Assembly (NCBI GenBank): GCA_005877505.1
Contig: VBOO01000060.1
Coordinates: forward strand, 1 to 39,981
DNA from: Nitrospirota bacterium
GTDB taxonomy: Bacteria; Nitrospirota; Nitrospiria; Nitrospirales; NS-4
Reading direction: 5' to 3'
Length of the DNA: 39,981 nucleotides
Shown: positions 5,368 to 38,794 of the stretch, piece after piece
Layout of the letters: every line of letters begins with the position of its first letter
Position numbering within the stretch: position 1 is the first letter of the stretch
Translations under genes and position numbers: made by a program
The notes under the pieces: generated by a model
What the model was told of the DNA's origin: nothing
The model's input: the letters and a program-made list of their open reading frames with translations, nothing else
Database searches by the model: none

Positions 5368-5382
5368 GGGACCCTCGCGCGA

Positions 5383-22683: not shown

Positions 22684-23880
22684 ATGGCGCCGATGGCCGA
22701 GTTGGTCGTCGAGACCGTGGAGGATCCGCGAAGCTTTGAGAGCCTCAAGGAGGAGTGGAACGAATTGCTCCGGGCCAGCCGCTCTGAATCCCTGTTCCTG
22801 ACCTGGGAATGGCTCTGGACGTGGTGGAAACACCTCTCCGATGGTAGGCGGCTTCGTCTCCTCACGGTACGCTGCGGCCGAGAGCTGATCGCGATCGCGC
22901 CGCTTGCCGTGCGTCCGCCTCGGGTGCGGCGCTTGCTTCCGTTTCGCGCGGTGGAATTCCTGGGCTCAGGCCTTATCGGCTCCGATTATCTTGATGTCAT
23001 CATCAGGGGCGGGAAGGAACAGGGCGCGTGCCACGCGCTGGCAGACTTTCTGCAACACGAGAAGCTCATGCTGGAACTCACGCAACTTGAGAGACGCTCC
23101 TGCGTGGCCGAAACGTTGGCCGCGGAATTGAAGCGGCGAGGCTGGCGCCTGTCCGAGACCAAGACCGAGGTCTGTCCGTTTATCAATCTATCCGGGCACT
23201 CCTGGCAGTCGTATCTCGCCACCCTCGGTCCGGAGCACCGCTATAACTTTTTGAGAAGGCTGAAGAACTTGATGAAACAATTCGAGGTCCGCTTCGAGCA
23301 AGTACACACGGAAGAACAGCGTCGAGAGGCGCTGCCCCTGCTCATCGCTCTGCACAATTTGCGCTGGCGGAATCGGGGCTCCTCGGAAGCTTTCTGCACG
23401 GCTGACCTGGTGTCATTCCACGACGAGCTGAGCCGCTTGGCGCTTGTGCAAGGCTGGTTGCGATTGTTCGTCCTACGGCTTGACGGCAAACCGGCGGCCG
23501 CCCTCTACGGCTTCGGCTACCACCGTGTCTTTTATTACTTTCAGGCCGGGTTTGACCCCAGGTATGGCAAGTACAGCGTCGGCCTTGTGACCATGGGGCT
23601 GGCCATCAAGAGCGCAATCGAGGAAGGCGCGGAAGGGTATGACCTCTTGCATGGCGATGAGCCGTACAAATTTCATTGGACGCGCGCGGCGCGTGAGCTC
23701 GGCCGGTTGGAGCTCTACCCGCCGGGCGCGCGCGGCTTGCTGTACAAGGGCACACTCGCGGTGAGCCGTGCAACCAGGAGAATGGCCCGGTGTGTGCTTC
23801 CGAAGACTGTCGCCGACTGGATCGTGACAGGAAGAGGCCTGCCCTTCGGAAACGGACGGGATGCTGCGGCGACTCGCTAA
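22684..23880 (+). CDS. CelD/BcsL / FemAB-like GNAT-fold acyl(aminoacyl)transferase, copy 2
   Basis: The likely start is 22684 (MAPMAELVVETVEDPRSFESLKEEWNELLRASRSESLFLTWEWLWTWWKHL..). The listed 22531 start overlaps the acetyltransferase gene. ..FQAGFDPRYGKYSVGLV.. parallels copy 1. Confidence 0.8.
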   Translation: MAPMAELVVETVEDPRSFESLKEEWNELLRASRSESLFLTWEWLWTWWKHLSDGRRLRLLTVRCGRELIAIAPLAVRPPRVRRLLPFRAVEFLGSGLIGSDYLDVIIRGGKEQGACHALADFLQHEKLMLELTQLERRSCVAETLAAELKRRGWRLSETKTEVCPFINLSGHSWQSYLATLGPEHRYNFLRRLKNLMKQFEVRFEQVHTEEQRREALPLLIALHNLRWRNRGSSEAFCTADLVSFHDELSRLALVQGWLRLFVLRLDGKPAAALYGFGYHRVFYYFQAGFDPRYGKYSVGLVTMGLAIKSAIEEGAEGYDLLHGDEPYKFHWTRAARELGRLELYPPGARGLLYKGTLAVSRATRRMARCVLPKTVADWIVTGRGLPFGNGRDAAATR

Positions 23881-25003
23881 AACAGGCTTGGCCTGCGCCT
23901 TGCATTGGACCGGAGCCGATAAGCTCATCGGCGCCCTGAACGGTTCGAGACACATGCCGCTGGTGCTTGGGTACCACCGCGTGGTCGAGGATTACACCGC
24001 CTGCGCTCGCCAATATATGCCAGCGATGCTGATCAGCCGCCGGATGTTGGAGCGCCAGCTTGACTGGATAGGGCGCCACTTCCGCCTTGTCTCCCTCGAC
24101 GAGCTGGGCCCGCGGCTTGAGTGTGGCGCGCCCTTCCACGAGCCTGTCGCAGCCATCACCTTTGATGACGGATACCGCGATGTGTACGATCACGCGTTGC
24201 CACTTTTGAAACGAAAGGGGATTCCTGCGGCAGCCTTCGTCGTGACAGACCTCATCGGGACTTCACGCTTGCAAAGCTACGACAAGCTCTACCTGCTGCT
24301 TGCCCGCGCCTTTTCCGCGTGGCGCGCTGGCCCGCGCGAGCTGGCTCGTCTGCTCCACGGCCTGGGAATCCGGCTGCCGGTGCGCGGGATGAATGACGTG
24401 AAACAGGCGCGCCATCTTGTCGCGGACCCCTATACGGCGATGCGAGTCTTGTTCACGGGTTTGCCCCAGATCGAGCTTGACCGTGTCATTGAAGCCCTGG
24501 AGGCCGAAGTCGGGATTGACGAAGGCTCCTTCAAAGACCTTCACGCCCTGACCTGGGAGATGGTCTCCGAGATGCACCGGGCCGGGATGACCATTGGGTC
24601 CCATACCCGGACCCACGCGTTGCTGCACAACGAGAGTCGGGACCGGGTCCTGGATGAAACGGGGAATTCCCGACAGGCGTTGGCGCGGAGGCTTGGGACA
24701 CGCATTCAACATTTCGCGTATCCCGACGGGCGGTTTGATACCGCGGCGGTAAGTGTGGTCGCGGATGCCGGGTATCGCTTCGCCTATACCACCTGCCTCC
24801 ACCGCGACCCCCGCTATCCCTTGCTGACCATCCCGCGCAGGCTTCTATGGGAGAATTCCTGTCTGAATGCGCTCGGGCGTTTCTCGTCACCCATCATGAG
24901 CTGTCAGGCTCATGGCGTCTTCGATGTCTTCGCCAGGTGCAGGCAAGATCACTGGTGGCCGGTGTCCGCGTCAGTGGCTCCAGGCGGGGGGCCAGGCGGA
25001 TGA
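23861..25003 (+). CDS. polysaccharide deacetylase (NodB homology domain) with an inserted ~90-aa segment
   Basis: ..VAAITFDDGYRDVYDHALPLLKRKGIPAAAFVV.. and ..MTIGSHTRTHALL.. (metal/catalytic motifs). A 20-nt overlap with the upstream gene. Confidence 0.85.
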   Translation: MLRRLAKTGLACALHWTGADKLIGALNGSRHMPLVLGYHRVVEDYTACARQYMPAMLISRRMLERQLDWIGRHFRLVSLDELGPRLECGAPFHEPVAAITFDDGYRDVYDHALPLLKRKGIPAAAFVVTDLIGTSRLQSYDKLYLLLARAFSAWRAGPRELARLLHGLGIRLPVRGMNDVKQARHLVADPYTAMRVLFTGLPQIELDRVIEALEAEVGIDEGSFKDLHALTWEMVSEMHRAGMTIGSHTRTHALLHNESRDRVLDETGNSRQALARRLGTRIQHFAYPDGRFDTAAVSVVADAGYRFAYTTCLHRDPRYPLLTIPRRLLWENSCLNALGRFSSPIMSCQAHGVFDVFARCRQDHWWPVSASVAPGGGPGG

Positions 25004-26493
25004 GCTCACTCGTCAAGCCGACGCTTGTCTTGATGTCAGGACGAGTCCTGGCCTTCATGGCGACGTTTTTTATCCCTGTCGTGCTGGCAAGGCTCTTCGA
25101 TCAGACCGAGTTCGGCATCTATAAACAGCTCTTTCTGATTTTTGCCACGTTCTACGTGATCGGGCAGTTTGGAATAGCGGAAAGCCTGTTTTACTTTCTC
25201 CCTCAGGCATCGCATGAGCCAGGGCGATACGTCCTCAACTCCCTCCTGGTGCTCGCGGCGGCAGGTCTCGCGTGCCTCGGACTGTTGACGCTCACCGCAT
25301 CGAAGATTGCGCAATGGATGAACACGAGCGCGCTGGCTGAATATATCCCGTGGATAGGCGTCTTTATTCTCCTGATGATCGCCTCGGCGGTCCTGGAGAT
25401 CGTCATGACCGTGCGCAAGCGATATCTCTGGGCCGCATCCACCTACGCCGTCTCCGACCTGCTGCGGGCTCTCCTGCTCGTCGTCCCAGTCCTTCTGTTC
25501 AGGCGGATGGAATGGCTCCTCCTGGGAGCCGTGGTCTTCGCGTCGGTCCGGCTCTGCGCGGCGTTGCTCTATCTCCGGTACGAGTTCGGCGGCGAACTCA
25601 GGCCGGATCCCGCGTTGCTGAACAAACAACTGGCTTATGCGTTCCCTTATCAAATGGCGGTTCTGGTTGATGTCGTGCAATCGAACTTCCATCAGTACGC
25701 CGTCTCCTATCATTTCGATGCCGCCACCTTCGCGATCTATGCCGTGGGGTGCCTGCAGATCCCGCTGGTCGATTTCCTCTTTACGCCCGCCAGTAATGTG
25801 ATGATGGTGCGGATGAGCGAGGAGATCAGGGACGGCAGAAGCAAAGCCGTGCTGGCCATCTGGCACAATACGACACGCAAGCTGGCGCTGGTCTTTTTCC
25901 CCCTGGTGGGGGTGCTGCTCGTGGCCGCGAGCGACCTGATTGTGGTTCTGTTTACCGAGAGCTATCGCGACAGCGTGCCGATATTCATGATCTGGACGAC
26001 GCTCACCCTGTTGGCAGCGCTCCAGACCGACGGCTTCCTGCGGGTGTACGCCGAAACCCGGTTTATCCTCCTGCAGAATGCGGTGCGGCTTCTGTTCATC
26101 GTGGCCTCGATCACGTGGTTCATTTCGACTTTTCAGCTCTTAGGGGCGGTGCTGGTCACGGCGATCGCTGCGGTGATCGGCAAAGGGTTGGCGTTGGCGA
26201 GGATCAAAAGCCTCTTGCAGGTCGGTCTCTCCCAGCTCCTACCTTGGCGGGGCCTTGCTGGAATTTTCATCGCGGCGGCCGCAGCAGGCCTCCCGGCTCT
26301 GATGGTTGAATCGGCGCTGGACGTTGCGAAGCTGCCCCTCCTCGTCATCACCAGCGTGGTGTACACCGCGTCCTATCTCATCCTCGTGTTTCGGGGCAAT
26401 CTGCTGACCGAGGACGAAAGACGTGCGTGCACAGCCTGGGTGCAACGGTTCACGGCGGGCGCCACAAAAGCCGGGGCGCTTCTCAGAAGTTAG
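25000..26493 (+). CDS. MOP-superfamily oligosaccharide flippase (Wzx-like)
   Basis: The ATG at 25000 overlaps the deacetylase stop (ATGA). About 12 or more hydrophobic helices. The N-terminus ..VLAFMATFFIPVVLARLFDQTEFGIYKQLFLI.. is typical of polysaccharide-biosynthesis flippases. Confidence 0.85.
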   Translation: MSSLVKPTLVLMSGRVLAFMATFFIPVVLARLFDQTEFGIYKQLFLIFATFYVIGQFGIAESLFYFLPQASHEPGRYVLNSLLVLAAAGLACLGLLTLTASKIAQWMNTSALAEYIPWIGVFILLMIASAVLEIVMTVRKRYLWAASTYAVSDLLRALLLVVPVLLFRRMEWLLLGAVVFASVRLCAALLYLRYEFGGELRPDPALLNKQLAYAFPYQMAVLVDVVQSNFHQYAVSYHFDAATFAIYAVGCLQIPLVDFLFTPASNVMMVRMSEEIRDGRSKAVLAIWHNTTRKLALVFFPLVGVLLVAASDLIVVLFTESYRDSVPIFMIWTTLTLLAALQTDGFLRVYAETRFILLQNAVRLLFIVASITWFISTFQLLGAVLVTAIAAVIGKGLALARIKSLLQVGLSQLLPWRGLAGIFIAAAAAGLPALMVESALDVAKLPLLVITSVVYTASYLILVFRGNLLTEDERRACTAWVQRFTAGATKAGALLRS

Positions 26494-26505
26494 CGGGGCA
26501 TTGCG

Positions 26506-28437
26506 ATGTGCGGCATAGCGGGAATAATGAGCTTCAATGGAAAGCCGGTCTCTTTCGAGAAGCTGCAGGGGATGTGCGCGGCGCTCGTCCATCGGGGTCC
26601 CGACGACGAGGGGTTCTACCTCGGAAGGGACAAGCGCGTGGGTCTGGGCATGCGCCGCTTGAGCATCATTGATCTCCAGACCGGACACCAGCCGGTGAGG
26701 AACGAGGACGGCACCGTCTGGGTGGTGTTCAACGGTGAAATCTATAACTTCAAGGCACTTCGGACTCACCTGCAAGGCCTGGGACATGCCTTGTACACCA
26801 CGACCGACACGGAAGTGATCGTACACCTGTATGAGGAGTATGGCCCGCGCTGTGTCGACCACCTCCGAGGGATGTTCGCCTTCGCGCTCTGGGACGAATC
26901 TCGCAGACAATTGCTCTTGGCGCGCGATCGTCTGGGCATCAAACCGCTCTATTATGCAGAAGCCGGCGGACAGCTCCTGTTCGCCTCGGAGCTGAAAGCG
27001 ATCCTGCAAGTGCCGGAGGTCGAACGCAATTTGAACTGGACGGCCGTGAGCCATCTCTTCACCGGTCTGACCACTTCTCCCACGGAGAGCATCATCGAGG
27101 GCGTCCTCAAGCTGGAGCCCGGACACCTCCTCATCGCCTCACCCGGCAAGAAGCCACAGATCGAACGCTACTGGGAGGTTCGATTTGAGCCCGACTACAG
27201 CCGGTCCGAAGAGGAGTATGCCGAGGAGTTACGCGAACGGCTCGAAGAGTCAGTCGCCCTGCACCTGGTGAGCGATGTTCCCCTGGGTGCCTTCCTGAGC
27301 GGGGGAATCGACTCCAGCACGGTCGTCGCCACGATGTCACGATTGGCCCCCGGTCCGGTCAAAACGTTTTCGATCGGCTTCTCCGACCAGGACTTCAACG
27401 AGCTCGACCATGCCCGCCTGGTGGCGAAACGATTCGGCACCGACCACCATGAGCTGATCCTCGAACCTGATGTGGTGGACATCCTGGAAGACCTGGCCTG
27501 GTACCTCGATGAGCCCTTCGGCGACCCCTCGGCCATCCCGACCTTTATGGTATCGAAGTTGGCGGCCGATCATGTGACCGTCGTGCTGTCGGGCGACGGC
27601 GGTGACGAACTCTTTGCCGGATACGACAGATACGTGGTCGAAGGACGGGAGCGGCGTTTCAGGTTTGTCCCGGCTCGCCTCAGACGCCTGCTCGGCCTGC
27701 TCAGCCGGCTGATGCCCGAAGGCATGAGAGGCCGAAACTTCCTCCGGCATCTCTCGCTGCCGGAGCTGGAACGATACCTGGACGCCTTAACGTTGTTCAG
27801 AAGCGAGGACAAACAACAGTTGTTCAGGAAAGAGGCCTTTGAGCGACTCCCGCTTTACGAGCCCTTCCGTCTTGAAGCTGAAAAGCGCACGCACGGAGAC
27901 GGCCACTGGCTCACCAGGCTCCAGTCCCTGGATCTCAAGGGCTACCTCCCGCTCGACATCCTGACCAAAGTGGACCGGATGAGCATGGCGCATTCCATCG
28001 AGGCTCGCGTCCCGCTGCTCGATCACAAACTGGTCGAGTTTGCCGCCACGATTCCCCCGGAGCTCAGGCTGCGCAACGGGACGACAAAGTACATCTTCAA
28101 GCGCGCCATGCGGGGGATCCTGCCGGACGAGATCATTGACCGGCCCAAGCATGGTTTTGGGATCCCGCTCGGGCGCTGGTTCAGAGGACAGCTTGGCAAC
28201 TTTGTCCGGGAGCTGTTGCTGTCGGAGACGAGCCGACGACGCGGGATCTTCAACGCCGCGTATATCGAGCAGTTGGTGCTTGGGCACGAACACGGACGGG
28301 AGCTCGACTTCCGTCTCTGGACTTTGATCTCCTTTGAGCTCTGGTGCCGGACTTTCCTGGATCGCCGGGCGCAGCCCTCGCTTCGAAGCGCTGCCAGGAG
28401 CCGCGTTCCACTTGTCAAAGAAGGCTCGTCGTTGTGA
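26506..28437 (+). CDS. asparagine synthase (glutamine-hydrolysing) family amidotransferase, paralogue 1
   Basis: MCGIAG.. (Cys2 nucleophile), ..RRLSIIDL..GHQP.., ..TDTEVIVHLYEE.., and the PP-loop ..AFLSGGIDSSTVV... Confidence 0.92.
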   Translation: MCGIAGIMSFNGKPVSFEKLQGMCAALVHRGPDDEGFYLGRDKRVGLGMRRLSIIDLQTGHQPVRNEDGTVWVVFNGEIYNFKALRTHLQGLGHALYTTTDTEVIVHLYEEYGPRCVDHLRGMFAFALWDESRRQLLLARDRLGIKPLYYAEAGGQLLFASELKAILQVPEVERNLNWTAVSHLFTGLTTSPTESIIEGVLKLEPGHLLIASPGKKPQIERYWEVRFEPDYSRSEEEYAEELRERLEESVALHLVSDVPLGAFLSGGIDSSTVVATMSRLAPGPVKTFSIGFSDQDFNELDHARLVAKRFGTDHHELILEPDVVDILEDLAWYLDEPFGDPSAIPTFMVSKLAADHVTVVLSGDGGDELFAGYDRYVVEGRERRFRFVPARLRRLLGLLSRLMPEGMRGRNFLRHLSLPELERYLDALTLFRSEDKQQLFRKEAFERLPLYEPFRLEAEKRTHGDGHWLTRLQSLDLKGYLPLDILTKVDRMSMAHSIEARVPLLDHKLVEFAATIPPELRLRNGTTKYIFKRAMRGILPDEIIDRPKHGFGIPLGRWFRGQLGNFVRELLLSETSRRRGIFNAAYIEQLVLGHEHGRELDFRLWTLISFELWCRTFLDRRAQPSLRSAARSRVPLVKEGSSL

Positions 28438-28447
28438 GCCGGATCAA

Positions 28448-29689
28448 ATGAGAGTCCCAAGGAAGATCCACGTCGATCCCCGTGTGCTACTGCTGATCTT
28501 CGCCACGTGCCTGTCCCTGGCCCTCGTGGAAGTGTCCTTGCGTCTCCTAGGGATCACCTTCGATGCCTCCCTGTACGGTTACGATGACGTGACCGGTTGG
28601 CGCTTGCGACCGGGCGCCCATGGGTGGTGGGTGAGTGAGGGGCATGCCTATGTGCGGATCAACCGCGACGGCATGAACGACCGGGACTATGCCCTCCTCA
28701 AGCCCAGAAACGGTCTGCGCATCGCCGTGCTAGGCGACTCGATGACGTCAGCCGTGCAGGTCGATGTCGAGCGCAACTTCCTGCGAGTGCTCGAGCGAAA
28801 TCTGTCCACCTGCCACGCCTTGACTGGGCGCCCCATCGAAGTCATGAACTTCGGGGTGCCCGGCTTCGGCACTGCCCAGGAGTTACTCACCTTTCAGCAC
28901 AAGGTCGTCCAGTACAGCCCGGACATCGTGCTGCTGGCGTTCTTCACGTACAACGACGTGCAGAACAACCATCGCGCGCTGAACCCGGTGAACAGCGCCG
29001 AAGCTCCCTACTTCGTCCTCGAGGGCAATCGCCTCGTCTTGGACGATTCGTTCCGGCAACAGCGCTCATGGAAGCTCTACGGAGTACTGCGCGACGCATT
29101 CGGCGACTTGGCTAATCGCTCGCGAATCATCCAAGCCGCGGCCGAGGTCATCCTGCGTCGGGGTTTGTTCGCACGGGCGCGGCAGGCCGAGGCTGGCGCC
29201 ATCGCTCAGCGGTTCGGTAAGCATGCCGACGCCCTGATCTACGGGCCGCCGACGTGGAAGGAAATGGCGGAAGCCTGGCAGGTGACCGAGGCGCTCCTGC
29301 TCCGCCTAGCCCAGGAGGCCGAGGCGCGCGATATCGGCTTCTGGCTCGTGACGCTCTCGCAAAGCCCCCAAGTCCTGGCCGATCCGGTCCAGCGGGCAGC
29401 CATAGTCCAGACGTACGGCATCCAGGACCTGTTCTATCCAGACCGGCGTCTGGAGAGATTTGCGCGACGTCACGGGATTCCGGCCATCGTGCTGGCGCCC
29501 GAACTCGCCCGCTACGCTGAGGTGCACCAGGCGCAGCTCACGCTTTTCCCGGATGGGTCTGGCCACTATAACGAGCTCGGGCACCGGATCATCGGCACTA
29601 TGATCGGCGAGCGTCTCTGCCAGGCCGCACAGGCTACGAGCGGCCACATGCAAGGGGGCAAGGCGTTGCGACTCGACAACGCGAGATGA
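28448..29689 (+). CDS. membrane-anchored SGNH/GDSL-fold protein (esterase or O-acyltransferase)
   Basis: The likely start is 28448 (MRVPRKIHVDPRVLLLIFATCLSLALVEVSL.., an N-terminal TM anchor). Block I ..IAVLGDSMTSA.., ..FGVPGFGTAQE.., and a block-V-like ..DGSGHYNELGH... Confidence 0.7.
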   Translation: MRVPRKIHVDPRVLLLIFATCLSLALVEVSLRLLGITFDASLYGYDDVTGWRLRPGAHGWWVSEGHAYVRINRDGMNDRDYALLKPRNGLRIAVLGDSMTSAVQVDVERNFLRVLERNLSTCHALTGRPIEVMNFGVPGFGTAQELLTFQHKVVQYSPDIVLLAFFTYNDVQNNHRALNPVNSAEAPYFVLEGNRLVLDDSFRQQRSWKLYGVLRDAFGDLANRSRIIQAAAEVILRRGLFARARQAEAGAIAQRFGKHADALIYGPPTWKEMAEAWQVTEALLLRLAQEAEARDIGFWLVTLSQSPQVLADPVQRAAIVQTYGIQDLFYPDRRLERFARRHGIPAIVLAPELARYAEVHQAQLTLFPDGSGHYNELGHRIIGTMIGERLCQAAQATSGHMQGGKALRLDNAR

Positions 29690-29770
29690 CCAAGCGCCGT
29701 CGCGCCCACAGACGCGCGGCTCCAGGTCCTTTCGTTCAGCCCCACGATGCACCCCATGTTGATTGACCAC

Positions 29771-29871
29771 ATAAAGGTCGGCCTGTAGCTAGGAGAGGCT
29801 GTCCATGTATCTGATCACAGGCGGGGCGGGCTTTATCGGCTCCAAGCTCGTCATGCACTGGTGGCTCGCGG
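29771..29871 (+). repeat. direct repeat copy 1: RBS + first ~22 codons of the epimerase gene
   Basis: Aligns with 30720-30821 at roughly 90% identity by eye with one 1-nt indel (gtc-atgcac vs gtccatgcac). It includes the aggag RBS and ATGTATCTGATCAC.GGCGGGGCGGG.TTTATCGGCTCCAA. Confidence 0.9.
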
Positions 29872-30605
29872 CGCTGGAGGTCGTTGGGATGATGAAGGAG
29901 GTGGCATCCCTCATGTGGCGCAGCGGGACTGAGGCCATCGAGAGGATCGAAAGAGGCCTGCGCCGACACGGACTCTGCGGCAGCGTTCGCCTTGTGGCGT
30001 CGCTCGCAGGAAAATTAGCGGGCAGGTTGCTCTATCTCCATCAGCGGCATATCTGGTACGAACTCGACCTTGACCGCGAACGACCTCTGATCGCCCTTCC
30101 ACCGGAACTCGAACTCGTTCGGGGCAGCATGGATGACCTACCGCTTCTGGAACAGCTCCCGACAATCAGCCTCATCGAAGCCCGCCGACGACTTGCTTCC
30201 GGGGCCGAGCCCTGGATCGTCCGAAAAGGCCAGCAGGCGGTCTTCTCCTGTTGGATCTTCCATGATGGCATGCCCGTCTTTGCCGCGCGCCGTGGCTGGA
30301 TCGACCTGCCGCGGGGCGTCGTTGGCCTGGAAGACGTGGTCACGTCACCGGCCTACCGGGGACAGGCCATCGCGTCCGGGGCCTTGTCCACGATCGCCGG
30401 TGCCCTCAGGCGCGAGGGGATGACCGCGATCCTGACGAAGACCGAGGAATCGAACGGCCCGTGCCGGGGCGCGCTCGAGAAGGTCGGGTTCCAGGCGGCG
30501 GCCTATATGAGCCTGGTGCGCGTCGCGACGAGGCCGCGCGTTGAGATACAGCCTGTTTTCGCGCGCGATGTCTTCGAATTCCTGGTCGCGCAGCTCTCCC
30601 GCTAG
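29805..30605 (+). CDS. GNAT N-acetyltransferase with a chimeric 5' end (epimerase Rossmann stub fused in frame)
   Basis: The ORF begins MYLITGGAGFIGSKLV (identical for 13 aa to the epimerase at 30754), then shifts frame relative to the epimerase. GNAT core ..VVTSPAYRGQAIASGALSTIAGALRREGMTAILTKTEESNGPCRGALEKVGFQ... A native-looking start exists at 29889 (ATGATG) with GGAGG at 29876-29880. Confidence 0.75.
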   Translation: MYLITGGAGFIGSKLVMHWWLAALEVVGMMKEVASLMWRSGTEAIERIERGLRRHGLCGSVRLVASLAGKLAGRLLYLHQRHIWYELDLDRERPLIALPPELELVRGSMDDLPLLEQLPTISLIEARRRLASGAEPWIVRKGQQAVFSCWIFHDGMPVFAARRGWIDLPRGVVGLEDVVTSPAYRGQAIASGALSTIAGALRREGMTAILTKTEESNGPCRGALEKVGFQAAAYMSLVRVATRPRVEIQPVFARDVFEFLVAQLSR

Positions 30606-30709
30606 CCGTGGTGGCCATCATCGAGCACCCGAAATGTGCCCAGCTCATGGCACGCCGGGCGCGGGAGCAGGTGACAATGGACACCTGGTCGGCGGTGAGC
30701 GAGGCATGA
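30569..30709 (+). pseudogene. 3' relic of a GT4 glycosyltransferase gene
   Basis: The frame reads CLRIPGRAALPLAVVAIIEHPKCAQLMARRAREQVTMDTWSAVSEA* (stop 30707-30709). It aligns by eye with the C-terminus of the intact GT4 at 33606-34718 (..GLIVPPRDPAAMARAVTSLLENQDRALRMARRARQEVEQHYTWPRVRE..), including an exact MARRAR. It overlaps the last ~12 codons of the GNAT ORF in another frame. Confidence 0.6.
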
Positions 30710-30719
30710 ATGACGCGGT

Positions 30720-30821
30720 ATGAAGGTCGGCGAGTAACGAGGAGCGGCTGTCCATGTATCTGATCACGGGCGGGGCGGGTTTTATCGGCTCCAATCTCGT
30801 CCATGCACTGGTGGCTCGCGG
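30720..30821 (+). repeat. direct repeat copy 2 (functional epimerase RBS and 5' end)
   Basis: See copy 1 (29771-29871). Confidence 0.9.
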
Positions 30822-31695
30822 ACAGCGGGTCCGCGTGCTGGACAATCTGGCGACAGGCCGCCTCGACAATCTCGAGCCAGTCAGAGGGACGATCGAGTTC
30901 GTGCAGGGGGACATCCGGTCCCTGGAGACCTGCCAGAAGGCCATGCAAGACGTCCGATTCGTGCTGCACCAGGCCGCGCTCCCCTCGGTCCCGCGCTCGT
31001 TCGAAGATCCGATCAGCTCAACCGCGGTCAACATTCACGGGACGCTGAATCTGCTGCTCGCGGCGCGGGACCGGCGGATCGAGCGCTTCGTATTTGCCTC
31101 GTCCTCCTCAGTCTACGGCGACACGCCCACGCTGCCGAAGGTGGAGACGATGCCCACCGATCCCCGCTCGCCCTATGCGGTGACCAAACTGACCGGCGAG
31201 CATCTCTGCCGGGTCTTCGCGCGCGCCTACGGGCTGCCGACCGTCTGTTTGCGCTACTTCAACGTGTATGGCCCCAGACAGGACCCCGCATCCACCTATG
31301 CGGCGGTGATCCCGCGCTTCATCACGCACTGCCTCCGGGGAACCGCGGCCACCATCTTCGGAGATGGCACGCAATCTCGCGATTTTACCTTCGTGGAGGA
31401 CTGCGTGGCCGCCAACCTCATGGCGTGCGAGGCGCCGATAGCCGGCTGTGAGGTGTGCAACATCGGGTCGGGTTCTCGCATCTCCATTGCCGAACTCCAC
31501 GCCATAATCAGGCGGATCACCCGGAGCGCCGCGTCGCCTCAGTTCGAGTCCCCGCGACCGGGGGACGTCAAGCATTCACTGGCCGATATCACGAGGGCCA
31601 AGGCCCTGCTTGGGTACACCCCTCGCTACGGCCTGGAATCCGGCCTCGCCCCGACCGTGGAATGGTTCAGGAGTCGAGAGGCAACAAGCCCATGA
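30754..31695 (+). CDS. extended-SDR NAD-dependent sugar epimerase (TviC/WbpP/GalE-like)
   Basis: MYLITGGAGFIGSNLV.. (Rossmann), ..FASSSSVYG.., the catalytic ..YAVTK.. (YxxxK), and ..LRYFNVYGPRQDP... Confidence 0.9.
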   Translation: MYLITGGAGFIGSNLVHALVARGQRVRVLDNLATGRLDNLEPVRGTIEFVQGDIRSLETCQKAMQDVRFVLHQAALPSVPRSFEDPISSTAVNIHGTLNLLLAARDRRIERFVFASSSSVYGDTPTLPKVETMPTDPRSPYAVTKLTGEHLCRVFARAYGLPTVCLRYFNVYGPRQDPASTYAAVIPRFITHCLRGTAATIFGDGTQSRDFTFVEDCVAANLMACEAPIAGCEVCNIGSGSRISIAELHAIIRRITRSAASPQFESPRPGDVKHSLADITRAKALLGYTPRYGLESGLAPTVEWFRSREATSP

Positions 31696-31731
31696 GCTCG
31701 CAGGTTCAGACACTCTAGGAGCGCGGAGACC

Positions 31732-33609
31732 ATGTGCGGTATTGCGGGCAAATTCAATCTTGACAGGCGGCCGATGGATGCGGGTCTCCTCGCGCGGATG
31801 GCCGGCCTCCTGACACACCGGGGTCCAGATGAGGAGGGGCTTTACGTGTCGGGGCCAATCGGCCTCGCCAGTCGGCGTCTGTCCATCATCGATCTGGATA
31901 CGGGCAAGCAACCTATCTCCAATGAGGATGGGACGGTGTGGGTGGTCCTCAACGGCGAGATTTATAACTTTGTCGAGCTGCGATCCATGCTCGAGGGGCG
32001 AGGGCATCGCTTCAGAACGCGGACCGACACGGAGGTCATCGTCCATCTCTATGAGGAGCACGGCGTCGCGCTGCTTGAACATCTCCGAGGGATGTTTGCC
32101 TTTGCGCTCTGGGATCAGACACGGCGCCAACTCCTGCTCGCCAGAGACCGGCTGGGCGAAAAGCCTCTCTTCTACTCCTACGTGCCCGGGAAATTTCTGC
32201 TCTTCGCCTCCGAGCTGAAATCCTTGCTTGTGGATGACGAGCTTCGCGGCAGCTTGAACCGGGCGGCCGTGGACCAATACTTCAGTCTCCTCTACATTCC
32301 GGCGCCCGCCACCATCTTCAATGAGGTGCAGAAACTCCCCGCCGCCCATTACCTGCTCTGCGCCGAACAGGGCATCACAGTCCAGGAATACTGGGACGTC
32401 CCACTCCCGCCCGAAGGAGAGGAAGATCGGCTCGACGAAACAGTCCTGCGCGATCACCTGCGCGAAGCGGTTCGCATCCAGCTTCGAAGCGACGTACCAG
32501 TCGGCGCGTTCCTGAGCGGGGGGATCGACTCGACGACGATCGTGGGCACCATGGCCGAATATGTCGGGCCTCGCATCGTCACCTGCTCGGTCGGCTTTGC
32601 CGAGCAGGATCACAACGAACTGTCCCACGCGCGCATCGTCGCCGAGCAATTGGGCACGCTGCATCGGGAGTGCCTGGTTCCTCCTGCCACGCCCGACCTG
32701 ATCGAGCAGTTGTGCTGGCACTTCGACGAGCCGTTCGCCGATTCGTCCGCCGTGCCCACCTGGGCGGTCTCACGTTTAGCGAGGCAACGGGTGAAAGTGG
32801 CGCTCTCGGGCGACGGAGGGGATGAATTATTCGGCGGCTACTCCCGCCATGCGCTGGAGTTGTGGGAGCATCTCCTCCGGCGCGGCGGGCGGGTTGCCTC
32901 CTGGTCGCTGGGGCAACTCGCCAGCGCGCTCCCGGCCGGCTTCAGGGGCCGGAATACCCTCGCGCGGCTGCGCGCTGAACCCGACGAGGCCTGCGCCATC
33001 AAGTTCCAGTTCGCCAGCCGAGCGGATCGGTTCAAGGCACAGATCTACAGCCCCGACTTCCGCCACGAGATGGGCGCCCGTGATGCGCTGGAGCCATTCA
33101 GACAGGCGTACCTCCGCGCCCAGAAGGCCAGCCCTGTCAACCGCATTCTGTACGTGGACCTCAAGACCTCCTTGCCCGACGACATGCTGGTGAAGGTGGA
33201 TCGCATGAGCATGGCCCACGGGCTGGAGGTGCGGGCCCCCTTCCTGGATCACCACTTGGTGGAACTGATCGCACGCCTGCCAGGCCGAGTGAAGGTCCCG
33301 GGACCGGCCACGAAGCCGCTGCTGCGCTCGATCCTCAACGGCCGGATTTCGCGCGTCGCTTGGGACCGGCCCAAGCACGGGTTCACGGCGCCGATCGGAC
33401 GGTGGCTACGCGCTGAGCTACGGGCGTACGCCGAAGACCTGGTGTTCTCGCCATCAAGCGTCAGCCGTGAACTGTTTGACCGGAAAGGACTGCGCCGGCT
33501 TTGGCAGGATCATCTCGCTGAACGGGAGAACCATGAGCACGAACTCTGGATGCTGCTGATGCTGGAGGTGTGGAATCGGATGCATACGCGTGCGGGGGTG
33601 GCAGCATGA
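31732..33609 (+). CDS. asparagine synthase family amidotransferase, paralogue 2
   Basis: MCGIAG.., ..RRLSIIDL..GKQP.., ..TDTEVIVHLYEEHG.., and the PP-loop ..AFLSGGIDSTTIV... Clearly paralogous to 26506-28437. Confidence 0.92.
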   Translation: MCGIAGKFNLDRRPMDAGLLARMAGLLTHRGPDEEGLYVSGPIGLASRRLSIIDLDTGKQPISNEDGTVWVVLNGEIYNFVELRSMLEGRGHRFRTRTDTEVIVHLYEEHGVALLEHLRGMFAFALWDQTRRQLLLARDRLGEKPLFYSYVPGKFLLFASELKSLLVDDELRGSLNRAAVDQYFSLLYIPAPATIFNEVQKLPAAHYLLCAEQGITVQEYWDVPLPPEGEEDRLDETVLRDHLREAVRIQLRSDVPVGAFLSGGIDSTTIVGTMAEYVGPRIVTCSVGFAEQDHNELSHARIVAEQLGTLHRECLVPPATPDLIEQLCWHFDEPFADSSAVPTWAVSRLARQRVKVALSGDGGDELFGGYSRHALELWEHLLRRGGRVASWSLGQLASALPAGFRGRNTLARLRAEPDEACAIKFQFASRADRFKAQIYSPDFRHEMGARDALEPFRQAYLRAQKASPVNRILYVDLKTSLPDDMLVKVDRMSMAHGLEVRAPFLDHHLVELIARLPGRVKVPGPATKPLLRSILNGRISRVAWDRPKHGFTAPIGRWLRAELRAYAEDLVFSPSSVSRELFDRKGLRRLWQDHLAERENHEHELWMLLMLEVWNRMHTRAGVAA

Positions 33610-34718
33610 TCATGGGAGAAACGCCCATGCGAAACGCCTCGACGAAAGGAACCGGTGTTCACATCATGGTTGTCGCCCCGACTCTCGATATCCTGGGCGG
33701 CCAAGCGGTCCAGGCGCACGCGCTGGCTACGGCGCTCAAAAACGAAGGCTATGCGGTGACGTTTCTTCCCGTCAACCCGAGGTTTCCGGCCGGACTGCAG
33801 TGGCTCCGTCGCTATCCCTATGTGCGAACCCTTTTGAACCAAGCGCTCTATTGCCCGAGCCTCGTGCGCCTCCGTTGGACCGATGTCGCGCATGTTTTCT
33901 CGGCGTCTTACTGGTCGTTTTTGCTGGCCCCGGTGCCTGCGATCGTGGCTGGACGGCTGATGGGGAAGCGAGTCGTGCTCAACTACCGGAGCGGTGAGGC
34001 CGAGGACCACCTGTCACGATGGGGTGTGCTCGTCCACCCTTGGCTGCGCTTGGCTGATGAAATCGTGGTCCCCTCGGAGTACCTTCGTGGGGTCTTCGCG
34101 CGTCATGGGTATCGGGCCCGGGTCATCCGGAACGTGGTGGACACCTCGCGCTACCACTACCAGGAGCGCTCGCCATTGCGCCCTCACCTGCTGTCTACAC
34201 GGAACTTGGAGCCGTACTACCGCGTGGATGTCACCCTGGAGGCGTTTGCGCTTCTCAAGGCCCGGTATCCAGACGCCACCTTGACAGTCGCGGGAGGCGG
34301 GAGCGAAGAGGGTCGGCTCCGCCGGTTGGCTGCCTCGCTCGGCGCCGGCGGCATTCGCTTCGTCGGGCCGGTCGAGCCTCCGGCGATTCCGCGCCTGTAT
34401 CAGGAGGCCGATGTCTTCGTGAACTCCTCCGTCCTCGACAACCAGCCGGTCTCGGTCTTGGAGGCGTTCGCGTCGGGACTTCCCGTGGTGTCCACGGGGA
34501 TCGGGGATATTTCTTCCATGGTTCGCGATGGAGAAACCGGTCTGATCGTTCCTCCAAGGGACCCGGCTGCGATGGCCAGGGCCGTGACCAGCCTCCTGGA
34601 GAATCAGGATCGCGCGTTGCGCATGGCCCGTCGCGCAAGACAGGAGGTCGAACAGCACTATACCTGGCCGCGGGTGCGTGAGGAGTGGGCGGCGGTGTAC
34701 TCGGGAAAGAGGGCCTAG
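33606..34718 (+). CDS. GT4 (group 1) glycosyltransferase
   Basis: The ATG at 33606 overlaps the AsnB stop (ATGA). ..VHIMVVAPTLDILGGQAVQAHALATAL.. and the E-x7-E region ..DNQPVSVLEAFASGLPVVSTGIGDISSMVRDGETGLIVPPRD... Confidence 0.88.
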   Translation: MIMGETPMRNASTKGTGVHIMVVAPTLDILGGQAVQAHALATALKNEGYAVTFLPVNPRFPAGLQWLRRYPYVRTLLNQALYCPSLVRLRWTDVAHVFSASYWSFLLAPVPAIVAGRLMGKRVVLNYRSGEAEDHLSRWGVLVHPWLRLADEIVVPSEYLRGVFARHGYRARVIRNVVDTSRYHYQERSPLRPHLLSTRNLEPYYRVDVTLEAFALLKARYPDATLTVAGGGSEEGRLRRLAASLGAGGIRFVGPVEPPAIPRLYQEADVFVNSSVLDNQPVSVLEAFASGLPVVSTGIGDISSMVRDGETGLIVPPRDPAAMARAVTSLLENQDRALRMARRARQEVEQHYTWPRVREEWAAVYSGKRA

Positions 34719-34729
34719 CGAGGTCAGTC

Positions 34730-36487
34730 ATGGCGATCGATCAGGCAACACCATCCAAGGGCCCGGACAGCGCGCCAACTCCGGGCTCGAGTCCGCTGCG
34801 AGTGGTAGTCTTTACGGCAGGGCCGTTGGCCTCGATCAATCAGGTCTTCTTCCAAAGACTTGCCAGTGACACGCTGCTGGACTTCCGCGGCGTCATCGTC
34901 GACGAATATCAGAGACCGCGAAAGCCGCTGGTCATGCGTCTGCTCCGTGGACTCCGCGAGGAAGGCTGGCCTTGGCTTTGGTTCAAAGTTGCCACGGGAT
35001 TGGCGGCGCTCATCCAGCGAGCGGCACTATCACTGTTCGAACGTGCACACAGGAGAAGGGGGCGGGATGAGTCGTACGAGACGTTCTCCCGGGAGACCGG
35101 GATCTCCGTGTATCGCGTCCACGACATTCATCAAGAAGAGAGCCTCAGGCTGATCAGGTTACTGCAGCCGCAGCTCGGGGTGATCGTCGGAGGCCGGATC
35201 CTTCACGACGCCGTCACCACGATCCCGGAATATGGCACGCTCAACATTCACAAGCGCAAGGTCCCTGAGTATCGCGGCGGCGGGCCCATGGGCTACTGGG
35301 AGGTGCTCGCCGGCGAACGCTCGATCGGCGTGACGATTCACTACGCAATCTCACAGGTCGATGCAGGGAATATTCTCGGAGAAGCCACGATCCCGATTGA
35401 AGAGTGCGATACCCTGAAGAGCCTCAAGATCAAGGCCGATATCCTCGGGGCACAACTCTACCACGACACCATCAGAAGCGTTGCGTTGGGTCTGCGCAAG
35501 GGAACGCCCCAGGATACATCACGCGGGAAGACGTACCGGGCACCGAGCGAGTTCAAGGTGTGGCAACTTGAAAAGCACCTGAAGCAGAAAGCAGCCAAGG
35601 TAATGCCATGTTTGCGGGGCCGTCCGCCATGGCTGGTAAGGATGCGACTGCTTGTGCAGTATGTGATGTTACTTCCTTTGCTCCTTGCCGTCAGGAAGCG
35701 GTTGCGCACGCGCCACAGTTCTCCGGTCTGTATTTTCTTTTACCACGTGGTTGCAAATCACCCGGTCAACCACATGTGTCTGCCATTCGAGGTGTTTGTC
35801 GAGCAGATCGAGTTCCTCCGGCGCTACTGGGCGATCATCCCACTTGACGAAGCCATCGAGCGGCTCAGGTCCGGCAAGAACGATGAGATTGCCGTCGCGA
35901 TCACATTTGACGACGGCTACAAGGACAATGCCTGGGCGATCGAGTACCTGCGGTACTTGGGCGTCCCGGCGACGTTCTTCATCTCGATCGGTCACGTGCG
36001 CAATGGCAGCTCGTTCCAACACGATCTGCGACGCGGATTCACGGACGCGGCCCCACTGTCCCTCACCGAGCTGCAGCGGCTGGCGTCAGCAGAGTTCACG
36101 ATCGGCTCCCACGGCCTCTATCACGAGGACTTCGGCGCACTCGACTCCGAAGCCGCGGACCACGCCCTTCGGGAGAGCCGTCGCCTGATCACCGAAGTCA
36201 CCGGCCAGACCCCAACGCACTTTTCGTTTCCCAAGGGGCAACGGGTGACGAATATCACGCCGGACAGCTTCGCGCTGGCGCTCCGCCACTACCGCTACGT
36301 CTACTCCGCCTATGGTGGCTACAACTTTCCTTGCCCAGAGCGCCGCCATTTCCTCCGCATGGGCAACCCGGTCGGTGTGCTCGAGCTGGCAATGAGTATG
36401 GACGGATATAACGGATATACGGGACTGCGCCAGTGCCTTTCCGGAAACGCCTGGGGACTCAAGACCGATGCACTTTCTCCCTACTGA
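34730..36487 (+). CDS. fusion protein: formyltransferase domain + hydrophobic linker + NodB polysaccharide deacetylase domain
   Basis: The likely start is 34730 (MAIDQ..). The formyltransferase core ..GTLNIHKRKVPEYRGGGP.. (Asn-x-His) and ..YAISQVDAGNIL.. (Asp) are preserved. Hydrophobic segment ..LLVQYVMLLPLLLAV... NodB motifs ..VAITFDDGYKDNAWAIEYLRYLGVPATFFI.. and ..FTIGSHGLYHEDF... Confidence 0.8.
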   Translation: MAIDQATPSKGPDSAPTPGSSPLRVVVFTAGPLASINQVFFQRLASDTLLDFRGVIVDEYQRPRKPLVMRLLRGLREEGWPWLWFKVATGLAALIQRAALSLFERAHRRRGRDESYETFSRETGISVYRVHDIHQEESLRLIRLLQPQLGVIVGGRILHDAVTTIPEYGTLNIHKRKVPEYRGGGPMGYWEVLAGERSIGVTIHYAISQVDAGNILGEATIPIEECDTLKSLKIKADILGAQLYHDTIRSVALGLRKGTPQDTSRGKTYRAPSEFKVWQLEKHLKQKAAKVMPCLRGRPPWLVRMRLLVQYVMLLPLLLAVRKRLRTRHSSPVCIFFYHVVANHPVNHMCLPFEVFVEQIEFLRRYWAIIPLDEAIERLRSGKNDEIAVAITFDDGYKDNAWAIEYLRYLGVPATFFISIGHVRNGSSFQHDLRRGFTDAAPLSLTELQRLASAEFTIGSHGLYHEDFGALDSEAADHALRESRRLITEVTGQTPTHFSFPKGQRVTNITPDSFALALRHYRYVYSAYGGYNFPCPERRHFLRMGNPVGVLELAMSMDGYNGYTGLRQCLSGNAWGLKTDALSPY

Positions 36488-36511: not shown

Positions 36512-38794
36512 ATGCAAAGCCTGGGACTCATTGATGGGGATGGCGGCGTGAGGCTGCGACGGCTGTTAAGCATGGGGCCCACCGAGCTCGCCTGTCGCAG
36601 CCGGCAGGAGGTGTCGAAGTGGTTGGAACGGGCGAGTGTCGTCGGAAGAATGGATGGCCACACCCATGCCATCTTCCAAAAAATAGCGCCTGGGCCGGTC
36701 CTTGATGCGATCGAAGCCTTGGTCCGGAAGGGGGACTTCGGTGGTGCCGCTCACGTGCTGTTGGACCACTTCTGGACGGCTGCGTCTGGCCGGTTCTTCG
36801 AGGGCGTCGTGAGCGAACAGACTCCCGCCCTGTTCGCCGAACACCTGCCGGGGACTCGAAACCAGGCGATTGCCGCGGCCGAAGCAGTCTGCCAAATGCG
36901 TTTTGATTTATTAGGGTACCGCGGTCTCTTCTTTGGTGATCCCGTGGACTGGCACCTGGATCCGGTCTCGGGACGGCGGGCTCCGCTCACGCACTGGAGT
37001 CAGATCAATCCGCTTGATCTAACTGCCGTGGGAGACAGCAAAGTTGTCTGGGAACTGAACCGGCACCAGTGGCTCGTTTACCTCGGACAGGCCTATCGGC
37101 TGACCGGGGACGATCGCTATGCAGAGACATTCGTCAATCACCTCCGCGACTGGATACAGGCCAACCCTCCGGGCATGGGGATCAACTGGGCAAGTAGCCT
37201 GGAAGTCTCGCTCCGTCTGATCGCGTGGTGCTGGGCTCTGGCGCTGTTTCGAAACGCCCACGTGCTATCGCCAGAGTTCTTCGCCTCCCTGCTATCGGCG
37301 ATCCAGGCTCATGCGTTGCATGTCGAACGATATCTCTCCTATTATTTTTCGCCGAACACCCACCTGACCGGCGAGGCGCTGGGACTGGTGTATGCCGGAG
37401 TGGTGTTCCCTGAGCTGCGCGCGGCCGACCGCTGGCGGAAGGTAGGCACTCGGATCCTGATCGAGCAGAGTGAACGCCAAATCCTGGCAGACGGCGTGTA
37501 CTTTGAGCAGTCCGCTTGCTACCAGCGGTACACCGCCGAGATCTACCTCCATTTCCTCGTCCTGGCCGCTCGCAACGGCATCGAGATACCGACATCCGTC
37601 CAGGCGCGGATCCAGCAATTGCTCGATTTTCTCCTCGCGATTCGTCTTCCGGACGGATCGCTTCCCCAGATCGGCGATGCCGACGGCGGGTGGCTGCTGC
37701 CGCTTGCCAGACGGGCCCCCAATGACCCCAGAGGCGTTTTCGCCATCGGAGCGGCCCTCTTCGGCCGACCTGACTACGCGTGGGCGGCCGGACGTGTGAC
37801 ACCGGAAGTCCTGTGGCTGTTAGGGCCCTCAGGCCTGAAGGCCTATCAGCAGCTCCGTCCGGCGGCGCCTGCCATGGCACCTTCCCGCCTTTTTCCGGAA
37901 GGAGGCTATGCGATCATGCGGAGCGGGTGGGGATCGGACGCCCACCAGTTGATCTTCGACGTGGGACCTCTCGGCTGTCCGGTGAGCGGGGGGCACGGGC
38001 ATGCTGACCTCCTGAGCATCCAGTGCTCCGTCTTCGGCGAGCCGTACCTTGTGGATGCCGGAACGTACTGCTACACGGCCAACCCTGAGTGGCGGGACTT
38101 CTTCCGAAGCACCGCCGCCCACAGCACCATCCGGGTGGACGGTATCGAGCAAGCCGCCCCTGCCGGGCCATTTAAGTGGCAGTCCCGGCCTTGCGCTCGC
38201 TTACACCGGTGGCTTTCTACAGAGGCGCTCGATTGGGCGGATGCCGACCATGACGCCTATCGCACCATCCCCGATCCAGTGGTGCACCGTCGGCGAGTCC
38301 TTTTCGTCAAGGCCAGATACTGGGTCGTGGTGGACGACCTTGACGGAGCAGCCAATCACCAGGTGGAAGTCCGATTCCAGTTCGCGCCCTTAACCGTGCG
38401 CATGGACCCATCTGGATGGGTCAGAGTGCTGGGAGACCAAGGCCATGGGCTGCTGATTCGGGCTTTCGCAACCGTCCCCCTCAAGACCACGCTGCATGAA
38501 GGCCACCTGGCGCCGATCCAAGGGTGGTACTCGCCGGATTACGGTCAGCGTCGCCCGGCGCCCGCCCTGGAATACTCGACCGAGCCGCAGCTCCCGTGTC
38601 GGATCGTGACCCTCCTCGTTCCCGTGGAAGACCCCTTCGCACCTCCGCCGGCCGTCTTGCCAATCCTGACTGACAGTCCGCAAAAAAAGCAGGATCTCGC
38701 GGGTCTCGTCTTCGGGGACGGGCAAGAGAGCGTCCGCTTCAATGAGCCAGACGGCGTCACGGTTCTTCCATCGCGTGCTGTCGGTGCTCGCTGA
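36512..38794 (+). CDS. heparinase II/III-like (alginate-lyase-fold N-domain + Hepar_II_III C-domain) protein
   Basis: ..DWHLDPVSGRRAP.., ..VWELNRHQWLVYLGQAYRLTGDDRYAE..WIQANPPGMGINWASSLEVSLRLIAW.. and ..GGHGHADLLSIQ... No N-terminal signal peptide is visible. Confidence 0.85.
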   Translation: MQSLGLIDGDGGVRLRRLLSMGPTELACRSRQEVSKWLERASVVGRMDGHTHAIFQKIAPGPVLDAIEALVRKGDFGGAAHVLLDHFWTAASGRFFEGVVSEQTPALFAEHLPGTRNQAIAAAEAVCQMRFDLLGYRGLFFGDPVDWHLDPVSGRRAPLTHWSQINPLDLTAVGDSKVVWELNRHQWLVYLGQAYRLTGDDRYAETFVNHLRDWIQANPPGMGINWASSLEVSLRLIAWCWALALFRNAHVLSPEFFASLLSAIQAHALHVERYLSYYFSPNTHLTGEALGLVYAGVVFPELRAADRWRKVGTRILIEQSERQILADGVYFEQSACYQRYTAEIYLHFLVLAARNGIEIPTSVQARIQQLLDFLLAIRLPDGSLPQIGDADGGWLLPLARRAPNDPRGVFAIGAALFGRPDYAWAAGRVTPEVLWLLGPSGLKAYQQLRPAAPAMAPSRLFPEGGYAIMRSGWGSDAHQLIFDVGPLGCPVSGGHGHADLLSIQCSVFGEPYLVDAGTYCYTANPEWRDFFRSTAAHSTIRVDGIEQAAPAGPFKWQSRPCARLHRWLSTEALDWADADHDAYRTIPDPVVHRRRVLFVKARYWVVVDDLDGAANHQVEVRFQFAPLTVRMDPSGWVRVLGDQGHGLLIRAFATVPLKTTLHEGHLAPIQGWYSPDYGQRRPAPALEYSTEPQLPCRIVTLLVPVEDPFAPPPAVLPILTDSPQKKQDLAGLVFGDGQESVRFNEPDGVTVLPSRAVGAR

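Follow-up and report, generated by a model that had tools for sequence, protein, structure and literature searches.

An orphaned epimerase start as a recombination scar in the exopolysaccharide locus of an uncultured Nitrospirota bacterium

Homology-facilitated illegitimate recombination (HFIR) has been proposed to displace genes in type VI secretion system (T6SS) and Rhs loci, leaving orphaned pieces beside a conserved anchor (PMC5361080), and it has also been invoked for displaced fragments in loci of these two kinds (PMC3240628). Here, we describe a scar of comparable shape in the DNA of a Nitrospirota bacterium (assembly GCA_005877505.1, contig VBOO01000060.1, positions 1 to 39,981). The whole stretch of 39,981 nucleotides, which we call the window, is a + strand exopolysaccharide locus whose genes were assigned with Pfam and NCBIfam. 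In this locus, the beginning of a sugar epimerase gene is present twice, once as an orphaned stub in front of a GNAT acetyltransferase gene and once, downstream of that gene, as the start of the intact epimerase.

Much is shared with the displacement arrays of T6SS effector-immunity, Rhs and contact-dependent inhibition (CDI) loci: a conserved homologous anchor at one end with, by all appearances, an illegitimate joint at the other and, as the product, a new module beside the anchor, an orphaned resident fragment and short duplicated conserved pieces (PMC5361080; PMC3240628). The differences are that the anchor here lies downstream, that the orphan is a 5' gene stub and not a 3' toxin tip or an immunity gene, that the locus is one for polysaccharide, and that the mechanism is read from its product alone. 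A mosaic architecture is general in pneumococcal cps, Klebsiella K and E. coli O-antigen loci. Conserved flanking modules, a variable centre and genes truncated at old junctions are common to such capsule, O-antigen and exopolysaccharide loci and to the locus studied here, and the differing gene sets that relatives carry between the first amidotransferase gene (AsnB1) and the epimerase resemble them as well; here, however, the host is an uncultured soil bacterium and no insertion sequence (IS) elements are involved. The third likeness is to frameshift fusions in gene remnants, in which a remnant with a ribosome-binding site (RBS) and an ATG comes to be in frame with the next gene and gene callers take the longer open reading frame (ORF). 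In fact, this is how the protein P0001 was called, at 266 amino acids (aa), although here the fusion is known from sequence alone. The feature is an ordinary recombination scar of mosaic polysaccharide-locus evolution and no new kind of system. It offers a clean, dated-by-sequence case of how polysaccharide loci are rebuilt in uncultured soil bacteria, with a conserved downstream module, a hypervariable slot before the epimerase and, as the scar, a gene start that has been orphaned.

The scar is made up of the following elements (below, L-numbers denote loci and X-numbers soil runs).

29721-29804, + strand: conserved spacer upstream of the epimerase, its native 5' context; repeat copy 1 begins with the last 34 nt of this spacer
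29771-29871, + strand: repeat copy 1, an orphaned epimerase 5' stub with a 34 nt leader, ATG at 29805 and 22 codons, one C lost
29805-30605, + strand: ORF of 266 aa running in frame from the stub into GNAT, with a 28-residue N-terminal extension; also in L006 and L017
29872-29888, + strand: 17 nt between the first joint (J1) and the native GNAT start, containing GGAGG at 29876-29880
29889-30605, + strand: GNAT acetyltransferase from its native start, 238 aa (Pfam Acetyltransf_1, homologues, fold)
30572-30709, + strand: relic of a GT4 glycosyltransferase C-terminus in the frame of 30545, TGA at 30707-30709; left edge uncertain, 30572-30596
30720-30821, + strand: repeat copy 2, holding the leader and first 22 codons of the intact epimerase; the novel junction 30719/30720 lies at -34 from the ATG
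30754-31695, + strand: intact sugar epimerase of the extended short-chain dehydrogenase/reductase (SDR) class, TviC/WbpP-like (Pfam Epimerase, 6.6e-68)

The two copies, 29771-29871 and 30720-30821, form a direct repeat that is identical in 92 of 102 alignment columns, with 82 nt at 89% (29771-29852 and 30720-30801) and 20 nt at 100% (29852-29871 and 30802-30821) separated by a 1-nt indel. Its local-alignment score of 152 stands far above that of dinucleotide shuffles (15.7 +/- 2.2, maximum 23), and the initial annotation, which by eye had made out a repeat of about 90% with an RBS and some 22 epimerase codons, was right on this point. Each copy carries a 34 nt leader with an RBS (AGGAG), an ATG (29805 or 30754) and the first 22 codons of the epimerase. 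Six of the 10 differences between the copies fall in the 34 non-coding bases, and the 67-68 coding bases hold the remainder, 3 substitutions and a 1-base deletion by which copy 1 lacks one C after 29852. The edges of the repeat are sharp on both sides: the 81 nt upstream of the copies do not align beyond chance (a score as high or higher arises in 792 of 1000 shuffles), nor do the roughly 120 nt downstream (738 of 1000), and a weaker similarity that had been suspected 25-70 nt further upstream belongs to this chance level. Direct orientation, similarity far above chance and defined edges together make this a segmental direct duplication. At J1 (29871/29872), the epimerase homology ends abruptly.

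The same structure is found in independent data, among them two other metagenome contigs. L006 (JGI 3300005552) reproduces window 29622-30813 with 8 mismatches (99.3%), and L017 (Ga0066709) reproduces 27937-30620 with 4 (99.85%), neither with an indel. Moreover, seven soil runs belonging to several studies yield unitig-level contigs that cross both junctions with even depth, J1 for example in X1 (29423-30619) and X7 (29400-30041) and the second joint in X3 (30270-31044), X4 (30270-30837) and X5 (30478-30848), and no alternative joint appears among them. Metagenomic reads can be mis-joined at conserved SDR N-termini, and unrelated epimerase contigs do touch 30760-30794. Yet, because three independent assemblies (the window, L006 and L017) and soil-run contigs agree on the structure, a mis-joining of reads at the repeated epimerase motif, the artefact that had been named as able to overturn the duplication, is barely conceivable.

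Which of the two copies is the original is decided by the sequence in front of them. Epimerase homologues of 87-90% identity were retrieved with their neighbourhoods for a comparison of the spacer. In L012, L013 and L015, a spacer of about 83 nt precedes the epimerase ATG; it is 83-89% identical to window 29721-29804, and the match continues through copy 1, blastn of 29721-29871 giving 88.8% to L012:9917-10068, 87.5% to L015:3704-3855 and 83% to L013:9919-10068. The three loci keep this spacer before the epimerase despite their differing upstream genes, and in L015 it begins 9 nt past the AsnB1 stop. In the window, the full spacer stands in front of copy 1 only. Copy 2 has spacer sequence only from -34 on (ATGAAGGTCGGC..), and upstream of that point lies the GT4 relic, a sequence that matches only L006. 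Since spacer and copy 1 are contiguous just as in L012, L013 and L015, copy 1 is the original 5' end of an epimerase and has kept its native context, and the novel joints are those at 29871/29872 and 30719/30720.

The initial annotation had drawn the junction differently. It had seen a GT4-like tail at 29690-29788 (..DARLQVLSFSPT..) and proposed that a junction between a GT4 3' end and the epimerase 5' end was duplicated, with a GNAT cassette between the two copies and a GT4 relic at each. One relic does lie immediately upstream of copy 2. Upstream of copy 1, however, is the conserved epimerase spacer and no GT4 tail: the stretch 29690-29788 has no GT4 match and hits only the epimerase spacers of L012, L013 and L015, and 29690-29770 compared with 30560-30719 shows no significant similarity. 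Such a duplicated junction is, in our judgement, highly improbable. Nor was a GT4-epimerase junction the ancestral state, as had been suggested: three relatives have the spacer contiguous with the epimerase start, and it is the 30719/30720 joint that is novel. What stands of that proposal is a recombination scar bracketing GNAT; GT4 scars on both sides do not, as there is one relic only.

The stub at 29805-29871 retains 22 codons (MYLITGGAGFIGSKLV..), including the GxxGxxG motif, and the remainder of the gene is missing. Having no complete Rossmann domain, no catalytic Ser/Thr and no YxxxK, it does not qualify as an extended SDR, and it is a remnant without enzymatic role. The spacer before it (29721-29804) is conserved as strongly as coding sequence (83-89%). 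Rfam, sigma-70 promoter and terminator scans gave no hit, and the consensus fold of the spacer showed no covariation; possibly, it serves as a promoter or leader of a kind not yet recognised. In the rearranged locus, GNAT alone lies behind the spacer, and the intact epimerase no longer does.

A second gene fragment adjoins copy 2. The frame of 30545 reads ..LRIPGRAALPLAVVAIIEHPKCAQLMARRAREQVTMDTWSAVSEA*, and tblastn matches this peptide to the C-terminal tail of a single GT4 orthologue, the one following the epimerase or AsnB2 (the second amidotransferase gene), in the window and in five loci (L007, L013, L014, L012 and L030), at 32-43% over 37-47 aa. The best match in the window is 34542-34682 (42.6% over 47 aa, E 5.5e-4). 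This bears out the GT4 remnant that had been recognised downstream of GNAT. Only the last ~40-47 residues are present at 30572-30709, with no start codon and no catalytic (Glycos_transf_1) domain, so that the segment does not qualify as a GT4; it is the relic of a GT4 tail. Its first ~11 codons overlap the end of GNAT in a different frame and, because that end of GNAT is conserved, the left edge of the relic is uncertain (30572-30596). A closer GT4 source for the peptide was not found in a collection of 5.8 billion proteins. The window's own GT4 (33570-34718) can be ruled out as the template of a recent copy, given the protein identity of 42.6%. On either side of the -34 junction, we also noticed a short near-repeat, GGTCGGCGGTGAGCGAGG (30684-30702) and GGTCGGCGAGTAACGAGG (30723-30741), and the motif ATGAA (30705 and 30720). 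These may be microhomology from the joining of the GT4 tail to the epimerase leader, or chance.

To explain this arrangement, we propose a recombination between two versions of the locus, homologous downstream, in the epimerase module, and illegitimate upstream, at codon 22/23 of the resident epimerase; we would give this proposal an even chance of being correct. In the ancestral state, the epimerase would have stood directly behind its ~83-nt spacer, as it does in relatives. Recombination of alternative locus versions would then have placed an 848-bp segment (29872-30719) ahead of the epimerase. This segment holds a GNAT gene of the locus family, together with the RBS of that gene, and what is left of a lost GT4 gene, the final ~40 codons. 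In the epimerase-AsnB2-GT4 module, the arriving DNA would have found its anchor through homologous recombination, and at the opposite end an illegitimate joint would have connected it to codon 22/23 of the resident epimerase. Since the arriving DNA would have brought its own epimerase start (from -34 onward), the gene would have remained whole, as copy 2, and the resident start (spacer, RBS and 22 codons) would have been orphaned upstream, as copy 1. A later 1-nt deletion would have put the stub ATG in frame with GNAT. On our best reading, the product is the outcome expected of HFIR.

The locus offers such an anchor: copy 2 continues into the epimerase-AsnB2-GT4 module, which is present at 86-98% identity in L013 and L016 (86.4% to L013 over 30720-34703; 98% to L016) and could have provided the homology. 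The divergence of ~10% between the copies equals that among the epimerase orthologues of relatives (88-90% identity), and it thus fits copies derived from two lineages. The GC content of the segment is not distinctive.

Several points weigh against this proposal. Neither the donor allele (GNAT-GT4-epimerase) nor the 'empty' allele (the SGNH-like hydrolase gene S, followed by the spacer and an intact epimerase) was found, so that the direction of the event and the number of steps are inferred, and microhomology at the illegitimate joints is unreadable without the donor sequence. Identity to any known GT4 tail is only ~40% for the relic, against 90% between the stub and the live gene; being far more diverged, the relic is possibly of a different age, which would mean more than one event. 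When the copies are compared with outgroups (L012, L013 and L015), their differences are about evenly copy-1-specific and copy-2-specific, and divergence in situ after a duplication therefore fits as well. Finally, the start codon in use is likewise inferred. In metatranscriptomes, a single contig of 266 nt, at depth 3, came to light, in X16, a soil run belonging to a study whose DNA runs also contain the locus. The contig is identical to window 29883-30148, its first base lying 6 nt 5' of the native GNAT ATG. As a hint of transcription it is weak, and it does not discriminate between start codons.

The disparity between stub and relic bears on a different history, in which an epimerase-GNAT-GT4 module was joined head-to-tail to an epimerase-AsnB2-GT4 module and internal deletions then removed most of the first epimerase and of the first GT4. 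A single logic would cover both the 22-codon stub and the ~40-codon GT4 tail, and the required neighbours exist in relatives: in L007 the epimerase adjoins GNAT with 14 nt between, and in L030 GNAT adjoins GT4. The 17 nt before GNAT also read RWRSLG*, with an ATGA overlap, loosely like an epimerase C-terminus (..EWFRS..), but the likeness is too short for testing. This history would take three events or more, and each deletion would have had to stop precisely at an edge of GNAT. Genes of the same module should be of similar age, yet the stub is 90% identical, non-coding leader included, and the relic ~40% at the protein level, and the epimerase of L007 is only 51% identical to that of the window. 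We consider such a fusion of modules possible but doubtful.

The even split of differences between the copies would be natural if replication, by switching templates, had carried GNAT together with the GT4 tail into the epimerase at +67 before resuming at -34, with two copies that were identical at first and then diverged in place by ~10%. Changes specific to copy 1 (the A at 29773, ACA, AAG and the deletion) about balance those specific to copy 2 (four in the leader), and the sharp copy edges fit too. Divergence of 10%, however, implies an age close to that of the split from relatives with 88-90% identical epimerases; L016 is 98% identical in epimerase-AsnB2 and yet has another upstream arrangement; and the origin of GNAT and of the truncated GT4 would still have to be explained. 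An insertion in situ is thus unlikely. A transposon or IS origin was considered and rejected: GNAT is the only ORF in 29872-30719 with a family match, there is no transposase, and the segment ends carry no inverted repeats. The 101-bp duplication also far exceeds typical target-site duplications.

Returning to the exchange between locus versions, the two parts that it would have brought together, a GNAT gene and the border of the epimerase, can be followed in other loci. Homologues of the GNAT (46-62% identical) occupy the same locus type, where they adjoin AsnB1 (L018, L001, L024), the epimerase (L007) or GT4 (L030), in the following gene orders.

L007: AsnB1-epimerase-GNAT-esterase-GT4-heparinase
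L018: flippase-AsnB1-GNAT
L030: GNAT-GT4-heparinase
L001 and L024: GNAT-AsnB1

None of these five GNAT loci has an epimerase stub. Since its homologues lie in the same locus type, the GNAT is a regular member of the locus family and not a foreign cassette, as which it had been thought to enter. As for the border, the genes ahead of the epimerase are different in every relative: AsnB1 only in L015, a deacetylase in L014, a deacetylase-like gene in L016, a Hexapep gene with a small ORF in L012, and an Asp/Arg hydroxylase in L013. Thus, recombination has recurred within the first ~100 nt around the epimerase start, where variable upstream genes border on the conserved epimerase-(AsnB2)-GT4 module. 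As a recurrent breakpoint, the epimerase 5' end is useful in typing variants of the locus. L016 (1-700, compared with window 30754-30770) has a different epimerase N-terminus; from roughly codon 5 of the gene onward, its identity to the window is 98%. The L016 allele and that of the window are found together in soil runs X7 and X8, with loose ends at 30766.

Close relatives are not represented among the genomes that we scanned. The nearest annotated ones, 50-67% identical in protein, are metagenome-assembled genomes (MAGs) that belong to Rokuibacteriota (L007) and to ANGP1 (L052). A 42-mer across J1 has no match in GTDB representatives, a genome scan based on AsnB1 gave 63% at best, and a scan based on the SGNH-like gene gave one locus, L052 in the ANGP1 MAG, where the gene is in another context, and no empty site.

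The protein at 29889-30605 is predicted to be a GNAT acetyltransferase by both profile and fold. It scores 30.9 bits against Acetyltransf_1 (PF00583, cut-off 20.7); in the AlphaFold2 (AF2) model of the 266-aa ORF, the GNAT core has a predicted local distance difference test score (pLDDT) of 80-97; and Foldseek matches it with probability 1.0 to GNAT structures, the top ones being VipF, MshD and a glucosamine N-acetyltransferase. The family is rare, with 13 homologues in the 5.8-billion-protein collection. Full-length homologues have 221-239 aa and start at residues 29-42 of the 266-aa ORF; the start regions of L007 (ATGAGCGTGGCATCCCTC) and L018 (ATGAGCGCGACATCCCTC) align with that of the window (ATGATGAAGGAGGTGGCATCCCTC), and a conserved 'GTGGCATCCCTC' follows shortly after the ATG in both L007 and the window. 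Together with the GGAGG lying 8 nt 5' of ATG 29889, these lengths and alignments point to a native start at 29889, or 29892, in agreement with the native-looking start (GGAGG 29876-29880, ATG 29889) picked out in the initial annotation. Most likely, GNAT is translated from its own start at 29889.

The longer frame exists nonetheless, as had also been observed: with one C lost after 29852, ATG 29805 is in frame with GNAT and opens the ORF of 266 aa (29805-30605). When the C is restored in silico, the stub ORF has 42 codons and stops at ~29930, past the GNAT start. GNAT homologues lack any stub-like N-terminal extension, and the sole other member of 266 aa, P0001, derives from L006 and repeats this chimera. 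What public collections list as a 266-aa protein is best taken as the 238-aa GNAT with a gene remnant in front, most likely an artefact of annotation, although the extended form may be made as well as the 238-aa GNAT.

Could the extension have been selected? Either the stub::GNAT fusion would be active, the 1-nt deletion having been favoured for that reason, or the stub would be a captured translation-initiation region for GNAT. The stub retains its RBS and ATG just as the live gene has them, nothing interrupts the frame, and all three assemblies carry the deletion; moreover, the undeleted 42-codon stub ORF, by crossing the GNAT start, could interfere with initiation. Against this, the prior for falling in frame is one in three, no homologue has an extension, residues 1-45 of the 266-aa ORF have pLDDT < 50 in the AF2 model, and a good native RBS and start are retained. 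We find a functional chimera highly doubtful.

The direct repeats invite one further idea, which we hold to be very unlikely: that they act as an excision switch, a RecA-type deletion removing GNAT and the relic and linking the epimerase to the spacer again, and that the frame-restoring deletion was selected to make a productive fusion out of an upstream ORF that interfered. If so, the epimerase would be intact when the crossover falls before the 1-nt deletion and frameshifted when it falls after, and soil populations would toggle irreversibly, or vary, in the acetylation of their exopolysaccharide. The excised form is absent from the contigs of the seven runs, which drop rare variants.

Within GNAT, L006 differs from the window at four positions, L006:592, 598, 730 and 737 (window 30213, 30219, 30351 and 30358). 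All four changes are non-synonymous and at family-conserved positions (W137R, V139L, A183S and R185L in 266-aa numbering), and they could reflect decay in that population or low-coverage sequencing errors.

Around the scar, the locus contains the following genes.

23861-25003, + strand: polysaccharide deacetylase
24847-26493, + strand: flippase
26506-28437, + strand: AsnB-like amidotransferase 1 (AsnB1)
28451-29689, + strand: SGNH/GDSL-like hydrolase (mechanical ORF 28334-29689)
31732-33609, + strand: AsnB-like amidotransferase 2 (AsnB2), module member
33570-34718, + strand: intact GT4, module member
34685-36487, + strand: formyltransferase/deacetylase
36512-38794, + strand: heparinase II/III-like
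38807-39631, + strand: methyltransferase

The epimerase of the module has TviC as its best NCBIfam match, under the cut-off of that family, and its homologues were found at 87-99% identity. The SGNH-like protein has no Pfam or NCBIfam match; it is 28% identical over 162 aa to a Lipase_GDSL_2 protein of L012, the LGDS block included, and its gene is missing where AsnB1 directly precedes the epimerase, as in L015 (AsnB1-spacer-epimerase). The mechanical SGNH ORF has a TTG start and a 104-nt overlap with AsnB1. Alignments with the L052 homologue and the L012 lipase begin after an ATG near 28451 (MRVPRK..), which suggests this later ATG as the start.

The two amidotransferases of the locus are 46% identical to each other, and both score best to TIGR03108 (XrtA/PEP-CTERM amidotransferase), under the cut-off. 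L007, L015 and L018 each have one copy only, an orthologue of AsnB1, and AsnB2 is part of the epimerase module, as in L013 and L016. L013 also holds a second stub-flanked replacement, in which 5' and 3' ends of AsnB1 (ORFs of ~108 and ~105 codons) flank CapK_C-like and DUF362 genes; the AsnB1 pieces lie at 5362-5587 (window 26504-26729) and 8672-8851 (window 28192-28371).

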